This document shows, one piece after another, positions 50,893-52,922 of a DNA stretch of 64,000 bases (the stretch's first letter is position 1; each line of letters begins with the position of its first letter). Source of the stretch: Escherichia coli O127:H6 str. E2348/69. Its GTDB lineage: Bacteria; Pseudomonadota; Gammaproteobacteria; Enterobacterales; Enterobacteriaceae. The DNA lies in assembly GCF_000026545.1 (NCBI RefSeq), contig NC_011601.1; one strand, written 5' to 3'. The translations under genes and the position numbers were made by a program. The notes below the pieces were generated by a model. That model saw nothing but the letters and a program-made list of their open reading frames with translations. It was not told the DNA's origin and did no database searches.

Positions 50893-52442
50893 CTGTCTCT
50901 TATACACAAATCCCCACCCGGGGATTTGTGATGTCTGTCAGTCTGCTTTAGGGGGACTCTTTCCATCCGGTAGTTTCCTTCCTCCCCGGCAGCGATTTTT
51001 TGAACTTTTTCCTCACCTGTTGATCTTCTCTTATATTTCATTTCCTTCGGGTCTGTTATGGTACTTTCTGATTGTTATTCATGGGCTAACGAGCAGTTTG
51101 GACATGCCCGTCTCGGTGATCCGCGTCGTACACGACGCCTTGTGTCACTGGCCTCTTCTCTCGCTCAGCATGCAGGTCTTTCTATTGTGAAATCATCCCA
51201 GTCCACTGCTCAGGTTGAAGGTGCGTACCGCCTGATACGTAACCCGTCTGTGTCCCCGCAAGCCATTGCCGAAGCCGGATTTACCGCCACTGTAAGGGCA
51301 TGTGAGGCTCATCCGCTGCTCCTCGCGCTGGAAGACACCACCACCATTAACTTCAGTCACAGTACGGCATCTGATGACCTGGGGAATACCACCACTAACC
51401 CGAAGACGCGCGGGCTGCTGGCTCACTCTGTCCTGATGTACGCCCCCGACAGCGCCCTGCCAGTCGGTCTTATCGAACAGCAGCGCTGGAGTCGTGCCAC
51501 GGACACCTACGGTGTTAAGCACCAGCGAAAAGAACGTCCCTATGAAGAAAAAGAAAGTTACCGCTGGCAGCAGGCTTCGGAGCGCATGGCCGAATGGCTG
51601 GGGGAGATACAGAAACGGGTAATCACTGTCTGTGACCGGGAAGCGGATATCTGGCATTACCTGCATTATAAAGTCAGCCACGGGCAGCGCTTCGTGGTGC
51701 GTGCAGCACAGAATCGCCGGCTGGAAGAAGCACCCGGCAAGCTCTTCGAACTGCCGGAAGTCCTGGCAACCGCGGGAAGCCACACGCTGAATGTGATGCA
51801 AAAAGGCGGGCGGGCAGCCCGCCAGGCCCGGATGTTCATCAGTTACAGCGAAGTCAGCATAAAAAATCCCGACAACAGCGGCCAGGCGCTCCCGCTCACG
51901 TATGTCTGTTGCCGGGAGCAGGCAGAGGACGGCGCCTGCTGGCATCTGCTGACGTCAGAAAAAGTGGCGAGTGCCGCCGATGCGCGACGTATCGTCAGCC
52001 ATTACGAGCGACGCTGGCTGATAGAGGAATACCACAAGGCGTGGAAAAGTGGTGGTACATGTGTGGAATCGCTGCGAATGCAGACCCGGGATAACCTCGA
52101 GCGCATGGTGGTTATCAAGGCGTTTATCGCGGTGCGGGTGCTGGGCCTGCGGCAGGGCGGTATCAGTGAAGAAACACAAAATGACAGCTGTGAGAAAATA
52201 CTGACGCCGACAGAGTGGAAACTGCTGTGGGTTAAGCTGGAAGGAAAACCGCTTCCGTCACAGATGCCGACACTGAAATGGGCCTGTCTGAAACTGGCGA
52301 AACTGGGGCGATGGCATGACAGCAAACGCACCGGTCGCCCCGGTTGGGTAGTCATGTGGGATGGCTGGTTCAGACTTCAGGATATGGTTGAGGGTTACCT
52401 GGTGATGAAGTCTCTTGATCAGGAGATCTGATCAAGAGACAG
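50893..52442 (+). mobile_element. IS4-family (IS50-like) insertion sequence, ~1550 bp
   Basis: 19-bp terminal repeats ctgtctcttatacacaaat (50893..50911) and agatctgatcaagagacag (52424..52442, reverse complement ctgtctcttgatcagatct); one transposase ORF; perfect 8-bp direct repeat ccgcccgg at 50885..50892 and 52443..52450. Confidence 0.9.
51058..52431 (+). CDS. IS4-family DDE transposase (Tn5 Tnp-like)
   Basis: 457-aa ORF alignable by eye to Tn5 transposase: LEDTT, VCDREADI and C-terminal YERRWLIEEYHKAWK (YREK signature) all present. Confidence 0.9.
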   Translation: MVLSDCYSWANEQFGHARLGDPRRTRRLVSLASSLAQHAGLSIVKSSQSTAQVEGAYRLIRNPSVSPQAIAEAGFTATVRACEAHPLLLALEDTTTINFSHSTASDDLGNTTTNPKTRGLLAHSVLMYAPDSALPVGLIEQQRWSRATDTYGVKHQRKERPYEEKESYRWQQASERMAEWLGEIQKRVITVCDREADIWHYLHYKVSHGQRFVVRAAQNRRLEEAPGKLFELPEVLATAGSHTLNVMQKGGRAARQARMFISYSEVSIKNPDNSGQALPLTYVCCREQAEDGACWHLLTSEKVASAADARRIVSHYERRWLIEEYHKAWKSGGTCVESLRMQTRDNLERMVVIKAFIAVRVLGLRQGGISEETQNDSCEKILTPTEWKLLWVKLEGKPLPSQMPTLKWACLKLAKLGRWHDSKRTGRPGWVVMWDGWFRLQDMVEGYLVMKSLDQEI

Positions 52443-52456
52443 CCGCCCGGAGAGGG

Positions 52457-52846
52457 TTAGTAGTTCCAGCGATAACGCTGCAAGTCGATTTGCCCTCTTC
52501 CTGACACCATCACACCTTCTGCCAGTAATGCCTGTCGCTGACGCTGTAAATCCGGTCCGGTTAGCGAAATGGTGCCGTGGCGATTAACCACCCGATGCCA
52601 GGGCAAGGTGCTGCCTTCCGGGAGACGCTTTAACACACCACCCACCTGGCGCGCGGCGCGGGGCGATCCCGCCAGTTTCGCCACATCACCGTAAGTGGTG
52701 ACATAGCCTTCGGGAATAGCTGCTACGATTTGCCAGACGCGTTGGGGAAATGAATCTTCTTTTTCCATCTTTTCTTCCTGAGGTAATTTTTCAGCATAAT
52801 CTGGAAAAACGCCCGAGTGAAGCCGCATTGCGCAAGAAACCAGCAT
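52457..52846 (-). CDS. atl: alkyltransferase-like DNA-repair protein Atl (YbaZ)
   Basis: ORF 52457..52867; start placed at second in-frame ATG (MLVSCAMRLHSG...) for ~129 aa; the choice of start is uncertain. Confidence 0.8.
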   Translation of the reverse strand: MLVSCAMRLHSGVFPDYAEKLPQEEKMEKEDSFPQRVWQIVAAIPEGYVTTYGDVAKLAGSPRAARQVGGVLKRLPEGSTLPWHRVVNRHGTISLTGPDLQRQRQALLAEGVMVSGRGQIDLQRYRWNY

Positions 52847-52922
52847 CTGGCACGCAATGGGTTGCAATTAGCCGGGGCAGCAGTGATAATGCGCCTGCGC
52901 GTTGGTTCTCAACGCTCTCAAT

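Follow-up and report, generated by a model that had tools for sequence, protein, structure and literature searches.

ISEc13, an insertion sequence (IS) of the IS4 family, resides in the chromosome of Escherichia coli O127:H6 str. E2348/69 at the apex of a small hairpin on which ybaY and atl converge, and it is likely that the insertion was targeted to this structure, is old and tolerated, and has a small effect on atl. Indeed, insertions of ISEc13 and of its relatives fall at the centre of symmetry of palindromes able to form hairpins, and the ybaY–atl site is non-random. The element itself is ordinary and known, being a Tn5/IS50-like member of the IS4 family that is annotated in the reference EPEC genome. 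Coordinates throughout are those of the window, i.e. the whole stretch of 64,000 nucleotides that was analysed.

The locus and its empty site

The RefSeq order at the locus is ybaY, ISEc13 transposase, MGMT-family protein and ffs, with ybaY as the convergent gene upstream of the element (table 1). The first-pass annotation had described the transposase gene (tnp) and atl as convergent, with their stops 26 nt apart, and ffs as a plus-strand gene at 52923..53036, and these coordinates hold: the tnp stop (TGA, 52429..52431, plus strand) and the atl stop (TAA, 52457..52459, minus strand) are separated by 25 bases, or by 26 on subtraction. The finding itself was placed at 52424-52867, which calls for a minor correction: the longest atl ORF begins with a TTG at 52867, but the start equivalent to that of the 129-aa K-12 protein is at 52846; the RefSeq coding sequence is shorter still (103 aa, 52457..52768). 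Disruption of atl or ffs by ISEc13 is ruled out, both genes being intact: atl differs from its K-12 counterpart by 11 nt and 1 aa, and ffs, which matches RF00169 at 52931..53027 (68 bits, Rfam), is identical in K-12 and E2348/69.

In silico deletion of ISEc13 together with one copy of its 8-bp target site duplication (TSD; CCGCCCGG, copies at 50885..50892 and 52443..52450) restores the K-12 ybaY–ybaZ intergenic sequence, and the earlier claim that the element splits the ybaY–atl hairpin is thereby borne out. The ancestral hairpin, AACCCTCTCC-GCCC-GGAGAGGGTT, is whole in K-12 and divided by ISEc13 in E2348/69, where its right outer arm overlaps the atl stop codon. It is GC-rich, with a 10-bp stem (AACCCUCUCC/GGAGAGGGUU) and a 4-nt loop, and its folding energy is -17.6 kcal/mol on one strand and -18.1 kcal/mol on the other (z -4.5 and -3.9, respectively, versus shuffles). 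It is, thus, a stem-loop but no canonical terminator: there is no U-tract in the tail on the plus (UUAGUAGUU) or the minus strand (UUAACGUCG), a terminator consensus scan of K-12 gives nothing at this place, and the K-12 3′-terminus tables (PMC10687069 supplements) contain none from tesB (474,260) to ffs (476,563), which low expression could also explain. In the mechanism proposed, ISEc13 would have transposed into this hairpin, common to the 3′ ends of ybaY and atl, and would have duplicated CCGCCCGG.

Table 1. Features of the ybaY–atl–ffs region in E2348/69, in window coordinates.
Feature	Coordinates	Strand	Evidence
ybaY, lipoprotein, 190 aa	50296..50868	+	ORF; Pfam YscW, E 6e-40; RefSeq
Left half of split hairpin: outer arm AACCCTCT (50877..50884) and TSD CCGCCCGG	50877..50892		junction analysis; K-12 empty site
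ISEc13, 1,550 bp, IS4 family, IS50-like	50893..52442	+	sequence identity, ends, TSD
Left terminal repeat CTGTCTCTTATACACAAAT	50893..50911	+	sequence; end conserved in relatives (42–49% aa identity)
Left-end hairpin CACAAAUCCCC-ACCC-GGGGAUUUGUG	50905..50930	+	folding: dG -18.6 kcal/mol, z -5.2
Best tnp promoter candidate, -10 box TATATT, -35 with only 3/6 matches	51032..51037	+	permissive hexamer scan
Transposase gene (tnp), 457 aa	51058..52431	+	ORF; Tn5 structure, Pfam and NCBIfam matches
Terminator-like hairpin and T-run, GGCGGGCTGCCCGCCCGCC TTTTTG, strongest of five on ISEc13 antisense strand	51805..51823	-	consensus scan
Right-end hairpin GUCUCUUGAUCAG-N5-CUGAUCAAGAGAC	52410..52440	both strands fold	folding
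Right terminal repeat CTGTCTCTTGATCAGATCT, minus-strand reading	52424..52442	-	sequence
Right half of split hairpin: TSD CCGCCCGG and outer arm AGAGGGTT (52451..52458)	52443..52458		junction analysis; K-12 comparison
atl (ybaZ), alkyltransferase-like DNA base-flipping protein, 129 aa	52457..52846	-	Pfam DNA_binding_1, E 4e-27; K-12 comparison
ffs promoter-like site, TTGCAA-17-GATAAT	52862..52890	+	promoter scan; same place in K-12
ffs, 4.5S (SRP) RNA, 114 nt	52923..53036	+	Rfam RF00169; identity to K-12 ffs

Identity of the element and structure of its ends

The copy at the locus is 100% identical to the E2348/69 element annotated as ‘IS4-like element ISEc13 family transposase’, and the name used here rests on this NCBI annotation and on the match of the transposase to NCBIfam NF033590 (511 bits). 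The protein aligns with Tn5 transposase structures over residues 6-453 (E 7e-83) and contains the Pfam domains Tnp_DNA_bind and DDE_Tnp_1; Dimer_Tnp_Tn5 scores 24.1 bits, under the 26.7 cut-off, in a protein whose alignment with the Tn5 structure reaches residue 453. The catalytic residues align with D97, D188 and E326 of Tn5, in the motifs LEDTT, VCDREAD and IEE and with IS4-type DDE spacing, and the YREK motif YERRWLIEEYHKAWK, from residue 316, conforms to the Y-(2)-R-(3)-E-(6)-K signature as defined in PMC2266710. The boundaries of the element are CTGTCTCTT...AAGAGACAG, a single ORF lies between terminal inverted repeats that begin 5′-CT, and the TSD is of approximately one helical turn: its length, 8 bp here and 8–11 bp among ISEc13 copies, falls in the range of the IS4 family, whereas that of IS50 is constant at 9 bp. 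An Rfam search within ISEc13 returned no known RNA family.

The left terminal repeat resembles the outside end of Tn5, with which it agrees at 17 of 19 positions. The right terminal repeat is identical to the mini-Tn5 inside end (19/19), with GATC sites and a stop codon within the end, and the same 19-mer sits within the mTn5F primer (PMC12310338).

ISEc13 carries stable hairpins just inside each of its ends. The left-end hairpin, which is met by transcripts entering the element from ybaY, starts 13 nt inside the end; four relatives have a hairpin at the equivalent position, followed by a T-run, and on alignment of the relatives the stems are out of register through indels. The right-end hairpin, 2 nt inside the end, is formed by the terminal repeat paired with an internal inverted copy, and folds on both the plus (dG -21.6 kcal/mol, z -5.5) and the minus strand (-21.3 kcal/mol, z -6.3). 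The stop codon of tnp falls within this hairpin, as do three GATC sites (52417, 52425 and 52430), and the 9-bp core of the stem is invariant in six relatives and, hence, gives no covariation signal. Both the left- and the right-end hairpin lack a downstream U-tract, and they may be non-terminating.

Target preference

Thirty-one insertion sites could be reconstructed, of which 20 are occupied by ISEc13 and 11 by relatives with an amino acid identity of 42–49%, and almost all of them lie at the apex of GC-rich palindromes, many being terminators. The ISEc13 sites follow the motif CCCY-N8-11-RGGG, with the duplicated bases corresponding to the hairpin loop and upper stem: CCC is found in 17 of 20 left flanks and GGG in 12 of 14 right flanks at the expected distance, with 6.5% expected by chance in a positional window picked after the first sites had been seen. 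Four extra loci initially included were dropped, because their ranking by flank similarity is a source of bias, and were replaced by copies with the exact transposase sequence. In this unbiased set, all 11 further sites fit the motif and 39 of the 44 flank positions adjoining the TSD are Watson-Crick complementary (P = 9e-19), as are 113 of 124 flank positions when all 31 sites (the earlier ones and those of the relatives) are pooled. Insertions in coding sequences (dgcJ and tssH) fit the same CCCY/RGGG motif, and the satP/mog terminator, which carries ISEc13 in both orientations in different genomes, is therefore a hot spot. Most metagenome matches to the left-end 38-mer are remnants that have been truncated or have lost internal parts; their left flanks were usable, but their TSDs had decayed. 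A transposase search of genome contigs gave no ISEc13, but only relatives at no more than 50% identity.

All of these sites are natural copies surviving selection, and survivorship could account for part of the intergenic bias; as an explanation, it is weakened by the base-precise placement at the palindrome apex and by the examples in coding sequences.

Age and distribution of the insertion

Among 5,426 complete genomes, the ybaY–atl site is occupied in 13 and empty in 5,394, and the occupied genomes form two groups with IS variants 2% apart. Comparison of E2348/69 with RM14723 gives an identity of 98.0% for ISEc13 and 97.75–99.7% for its flanks; atl differs by 11 nt and 2 aa and tnp by 26 nt and 8 aa, both genes being intact. 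Since the divergence of the IS is about equal to that of the flanks, the insertion is old; it has been vertically inherited and tolerated, being kept through approximately 2% divergence with atl and ffs intact.

Transcription around atl

A promoter scan stricter than that yielding the candidate in table 1 found no promoter for tnp, and no outward promoter is present at the right end of ISEc13 at a threshold of at least 8 of 12 matches. The consensus scan detected no terminator-like site on the plus strand from the tnp stop to the ffs leader, so that read-through antisense to atl is physically possible; such RNA, whether starting from tnp or from ybaY, would be untranslated, with C-rich stretches, and would presumably be a Rho-type substrate. 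On the minus strand, any transcript reading through from atl would meet the terminator-like site at 51805..51823.

A published list of convergent excludons, i.e. gene pairs with overlapping transcripts, includes ybaY–ybaZ of K-12, with the overlap recorded in at least 50% of a set of 58 RNA-seq samples (PMC12288877), and the hairpin, which is common to both genes across a 30-nt spacer, is intact where the overlap is listed. In E2348/69, in contrast, the partners are 1.55 kb apart and atl faces tnp. The condition-specific termini of one published EPEC 3′-end set include none for ybaY or atl. The overlap of the K-12 transcripts and the lack of both a U-tract and a mapped 3′ end weaken the earlier view of the hairpin as an insulator of ybaY from atl. 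The related claim that the intergenic hairpin was lost is correct in that the hairpin is split, but ISEc13 end hairpins of equal or greater stability are now in place.

Overall, the effect of ISEc13 on atl transcription is probably small, since the ancestral ybaY and atl transcripts already overlapped, the ancestral hairpin was no canonical terminator, comparable ISEc13 hairpins have taken its stead, and 1.5 kb and a weak promoter now lie between ybaY and atl.

Alternative explanations

If splitting of the hairpin had abolished termination, transcription from tnp and ybaY would run antisense across atl, and that of atl into ISEc13, and Atl would be lowered by transcriptional interference or by degradation of double-stranded RNA. 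Such a scenario is in keeping with the convergent genes with 25 nt between their stops, with the plus strand being devoid of a terminator-like site before ffs and with the absence of U-tracts from the ISEc13 hairpins, but we consider it unlikely: the K-12 transcripts overlap with the hairpin intact, the ancestral hairpin has neither the features of a canonical terminator nor a mapped 3′ end, promoter scans give a weak candidate for tnp and none directed outward at the right end, the replacement hairpins are equally or more stable, and the insertion has been retained through approximately 2% divergence with atl under purifying selection. The 13 occupied genomes would have no bearing on long-term tolerance if they resulted from repeated, independent insertions at a hot spot, as the occupation of the satP/mog hairpin in both orientations and the existence of two genome groups with IS variants 2% different might suggest. 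However, position, TSD and orientation are the same in 13 of 13, the opposite orientation is found at the site in none of the 5,426 complete genomes, the divergence of the IS (2.0%) matches that of the flanks (0.3–2.25%), and in seven of the 13 the ybaY–atl copy is the sole ISEc13, so that there is no donor in the cell. Repeated insertion appears, therefore, distinctly improbable, and an old, vertically inherited insertion is preferred.

With regard to what is recognized at the target, a duplex motif, in which CCCY and RGGG are half-sites for two transposase subunits, could take the place of a hairpin or cruciform, with the association with terminators as a by-product. Tn5-type transposases act on duplex targets, C-runs and G-runs of one polarity are present in 20 of 20 ISEc13 sites, and the motif is found also at the insertions in coding DNA, which makes this a serious possibility, although one about which we have some doubt. 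In the relatives, indeed, the arm sequences differ (GGCT/AGCC, GCCA/TGGC and CCCG/CGGG) while complementarity is retained; the TSD length follows the arm-to-arm distance, from 8 to 12 bp, for which symmetry or structure is an easier account than fixed spacing. It is about an even call whether ISEc13 and its gammaproteobacterial relatives constitute a Tn5-like clade that specifically targets the apex of terminator hairpins, with a TSD (8–12 bp) set by hairpin geometry and not by a fixed stagger, and that carries its own end-proximal hairpins (stem and T-run at the left end of the relatives), which together would re-insulate the neighbouring genes and keep transcription that starts outside the element from reaching the transposase. 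The searchable literature yielded no description of apex targeting, hairpin-set TSD and end hairpins for the IS50 subgroup.

Relation to other insertion sequences

Besides homology over the full length of the transposase, the DDE triad, the YREK motif and the ends, ISEc13 has in common with IS50/Tn5 a Tn5-type N-terminal DNA-binding domain and a single ORF with a weak promoter. It differs in the variable length of its TSD and in its strong CCCY...RGGG palindrome-apex preference, the consensus of Tn5 being weak (PMC2266710). Furthermore, its transposase has Thr at the position of Met56 of Tn5 (the inhibitor start), and it has stable hairpins inside both ends.

Symmetric G/C-run targets are a feature of other IS4-family members: IS186 uses a G-run, a short spacer and a C-run, with a TSD of variable length, and the target of IS231A is GGG-N5-CCC. 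The likeness to ISEc13 is one of description, the polarity being opposite (G-run then C-run, i.e. the other hairpin arms) and the IS4 subgroups different. Most or all copies of IS1397, ISKpn1, IS621, ISPpu9/10 and the IS4-family ISRm22 are located in extragenic palindromes, for which a safe-haven strategy has been proposed (PMC1525189). As in these palindrome- or REP-targeting elements, most independent copies of ISEc13 and its relatives lie in hairpin-forming palindromes in a fixed register (natural copies, 31 sites), but the former are restricted to one species-specific repeat family and belong to other families with other chemistries (IS3 and IS110), whereas ISEc13 and its relatives exploit unrelated unique hairpins, ordinary terminators and also repeats.

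Significance

For the finding as originally made, namely head-on transcription of the transposase gene into atl, little changes: the element is an annotated IS, and the effect proposed for atl is likely to be minor. The target preference of ISEc13 is modestly interesting. If true, the preference for hairpin apices would explain why ISEc13 is found between convergent genes and in the terminators of small-RNA/toxin loci (e.g. sib/ibs), would make hot spots of insertion in E. coli easier to predict, and would provide a naturally occurring contrast to Tn5, with its near-random insertion, for the study of target capture.

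The insertion and its neighbourhood

The window is a 100% match to E2348/69 (EPEC, O127:H6), and the genes are ordered tesB(-), ybaY(+), IS, atl/ybaZ(-), ffs(+), ybaA(+) and pdeB(-). On an ORF and sequence check, the transposase gene (tnp) lies where the first-pass annotation had placed it, as do the atl stop codon and ffs, the latter identical in sequence to K-12 ffs and scoring 68 bits with the Rfam bacterial small SRP model; the far limit given for atl is the start of its longest ORF and has been corrected to the K-12-equivalent start. The RefSeq CDS for atl is a 103-aa 'MGMT family protein', K-12 ybaZ being 129 aa, and the longer ORF from the K-12-equivalent start is fully conserved in E2348/69. 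At the 3' end of tesB there is a sub-threshold Rfam Thr_leader match; most likely it is no more than the terminator hairpin of tesB, a mapped K-12 3' end.

Coordinates of features in the tesB–pdeB region
Feature	Position	Strand	Remarks
Rfam Thr_leader match, tesB 3' end	49179..49265	-	26 bits; gathering score 55
ISEc13 copy	50893..52442		1,550 bp; 8-bp direct repeat CCGCCCGG on both sides
Left-end hairpin	50905..50930		-18.6 kcal/mol; 13 nt inside left end
Retained ATTTTTTGAAC	50995..51005		about 60 nt downstream of left-end hairpin
Best tnp promoter candidate, -10 TATATT	51032..51037		-35 match 3/6
tnp ORF	51058..52431	+
Five terminator-like hairpin-plus-T-run sites inside tnp	51561..51978	-	none on sense strand
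Hairpin-plus-T-run site on atl transcript path (example)	51823..51805	-
Right-end hairpin	52410..52440		-21.6 (+), -21.3 (-) kcal/mol; 2 nt inside right end; includes tnp stop codon
Counterpart of 35-bp palindrome	52410..52442
GATC sites, right end	52425, 52430; third at 52417
atl stop codon	52457..52459	-	25 intervening bases from tnp stop
atl, K-12-equivalent start	52457..52846	-	RefSeq CDS start 52768; longest ORF, TTG start 52867
ffs	52923..53036	+
ybaA–pdeB	53147..55098

The element, whose product is named 'IS4-like element ISEc13 family transposase' in RefSeq (NCBI annotation), encodes a 457-aa transposase to which Tn5 transposase structures align along nearly the full length (E 7e-83), with the counterparts of Tn5 D97, D188 and E326 and the YREK motif kept. 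The protein matches Pfam Tnp_DNA_bind and DDE_Tnp_1 and scores 511 bits with NCBIfam NF033590; its score for the Pfam dimerisation domain is just under threshold. With the exception of this domain, its sequence-defined features assign the element to the IS50 subgroup of the IS4 family. The left end, CTGTCTCTTATACACAAAT, is similar to the Tn5 outside end, and a 19-mer of the right end, CTGTCTCTTGATCAGATCT when read inward, is contained in a published mini-Tn5 end primer (PMC12310338). The copy in E2348/69 is a known, ordinary object, and the eight papers found to mention ISEc13 name it solely among the elements detected.

The ancestral hairpin and transcription into atl

Removal in silico of the IS and one repeat copy restores the K-12 ybaY–ybaZ spacer, in which 30 nt separate the two stop codons and the hairpin AACCCTCTCC-GCCC-GGAGAGGGTT folds with a 10-bp stem at about -18 kcal/mol, whichever strand is taken. 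By this empty-site reconstruction, the splitting of the hairpin by the element is genuine. The K-12 data contradict its supposed role in insulating ybaY and atl from each other. On both strands the stem lacks a following U-tract, a terminator consensus scan of K-12 reported nothing at the hairpin, and the K-12 3'-terminus tables (PMC10687069) pass from tesB to ffs without any terminus between; the ancestral hairpin is not a textbook terminator. Furthermore, ybaY–ybaZ is a K-12 convergent excludon, its transcript coverage overlapping in half or more of the 58 RNA-seq samples, in a 2025 survey (PMC12288877) that also lists the next convergent pair, ybaA–pdeB, as such. Since K-12 has this excludon and no mapped terminus at the hairpin, antisense transcripts overlapping the 3' end of atl are ancestral and not created by the IS.

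Nor was the hairpin simply lost, since the end hairpins of the IS replace it. Both are also carried by the nearest relatives of ISEc13, with a 9-bp core of the right-end stem invariant among relatives; in the nearest relatives a T-run comes after the left-end hairpin, as in a canonical terminator. In ISEc13 itself the end hairpins have no good U-tract and are at most candidate terminators. In four relatives' copies (L006, L016, L023 and L027; 49% amino-acid identity), the first 50 nt hold the left-end hairpin, then T6-7, then TTGAAC, which reads as a canonical terminator immediately upstream of a -35-like hexamer; ISEc13 retains ATTTTTTGAAC farther downstream.

Transcripts from ybaY meet the left-end hairpin 36 nt past the ybaY stop codon, and those from atl meet a 13-bp stem 16 nt past the atl stop codon and, deeper in the IS, several hairpin-plus-T-run sites on the antisense strand. 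The terminator-like sites on the minus strand of tnp could halt RNA polymerase that enters the IS through its right end. As for the proposal that tnp transcription runs head-on into atl, the coordinates confirm the convergent geometry, and a scan of the window found no recognisable terminator in the way, so that read-through into antisense atl would be physically unblocked, its effect on atl being hypothetical. For tnp, even the best candidate promoter is weak, and promoter scans found no outward promoter at the right end. Opposite atl, stretches of the plus strand are rich in C (up to 41% C vs 27% G), which would be compatible with Rho action on untranslated antisense RNA.

An identical ybaY–atl junction is found in 13 of 5,426 genomes, the site being empty in 5,394 and occupied in the opposite orientation in none. 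A comparison of E2348/69 with RM14723, which has ISEc13 only at ybaY–atl, gives identities of 98.0% for the IS and 97.75–99.7% for the segments on either side; both genes are intact, atl differing by 11 nucleotides and only 2 amino acids and tnp by 26 nucleotides and 8 amino acids. This pattern fits one old inherited insertion without resulting loss of atl, and the evolutionary record shows that the insertion is tolerated.

Copies, remnants and scars in E. coli

Of 5,426 complete E. coli genomes, 873 have full-length ISEc13 and 2,991 have remnants, so that decayed remnants far outnumber intact copies; E2348/69 itself has about 29 places matching ISEc13. Among the remnants are a left-end piece of 452 bp, which carries the annotation 'IS4/Tn5 family transposase DNA-binding protein', and copies without positions 532-1120. 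A perfect palindrome of 35 bp, CTGTCTCTTGATCAG-gagat-CTGATCAAGAGACAG, stands alone within a CCC...GGG-rich palindrome between lldD and trmL in E. coli C (L084, positions 599-633; same in L085) and is found in many E. coli genomes, strains B and C among them. Because a deletion from one 7-bp direct repeat GTCTCTT to the other (IS positions 3-9 and 1518-1524) would yield exactly this sequence, it looks like a scar from the 'nearly precise excision' of an ISEc13 copy inserted long ago. In CP148541.1, two copies (L092 and L093, about 2.305 and 2.366 Mb) have no matching duplications, and the left flank of each matches the right flank of the other, the signature of a ~60 kb inversion via recombination between copies.

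Target preference of ISEc13 and its relatives

The flanks of other ISEc13 copies were similar to those of the ybaY–atl insertion; because flank similarity had served to rank these initial cases, three more site sets were added, namely left flanks from a metagenome scan, further E. coli loci and an unbiased set of copies retrieved via the exact transposase sequence. CCC occurs at -16..-7 in 17 of 20 left flanks and GGG at +7..+16 in 12 of 14 right flanks (chance expectation 6.5%), these positions having been picked after data inspection. All 11 new sites of the unbiased set have the form CCCY[N8-9]RGGG, and 39 of the 44 positions adjoining the duplication are Watson-Crick complementary (P = 9e-19). 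The same layout is seen at 11 sites of relatives (42–49% amino-acid identity; Alishewanella, Alteromonas and other gammaproteobacteria), many of them plain intrinsic terminators (A-run, stem, loop, stem, T-run); the relatives' duplications are of 8–12 bp, equal to the loop plus upper stem. For ISEc13 and relatives taken together, complementarity holds at 113 of 124 flanking positions. The motif is also obeyed by insertions within the genes dgcJ and tssH. At the satP/yaaH–mog intergenic terminator hairpin, GATCCCC[CCGCTCGG]GGGGATTTTTTT, ISEc13 lies in opposite orientations in two genomes (L090 vs L099), two independent events at one hot spot. Given this pattern across copies, the split ybaY–atl hairpin reflects the target preference of the element, an effect that is very large among natural copies, which are survivors of selection.

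IS186 and IS231 of the IS4 family are similar to ISEc13 in their GC-rich symmetric targets and variable duplications. Similar targeting behaviour is known for ISs directed to palindromes or REP sequences (IS1397, ISKpn1, IS621 and the IS4-family ISRm22; PMC1525189). According to the IS4-family review (PMC2266710), other subgroups have target arms that are conserved and duplications that vary in length, its target data for the IS50 subgroup being those of Tn5 only. The preference of this Tn5-like clade for hairpin apices may be undescribed so far, and is of moderate interest for transposon biology.
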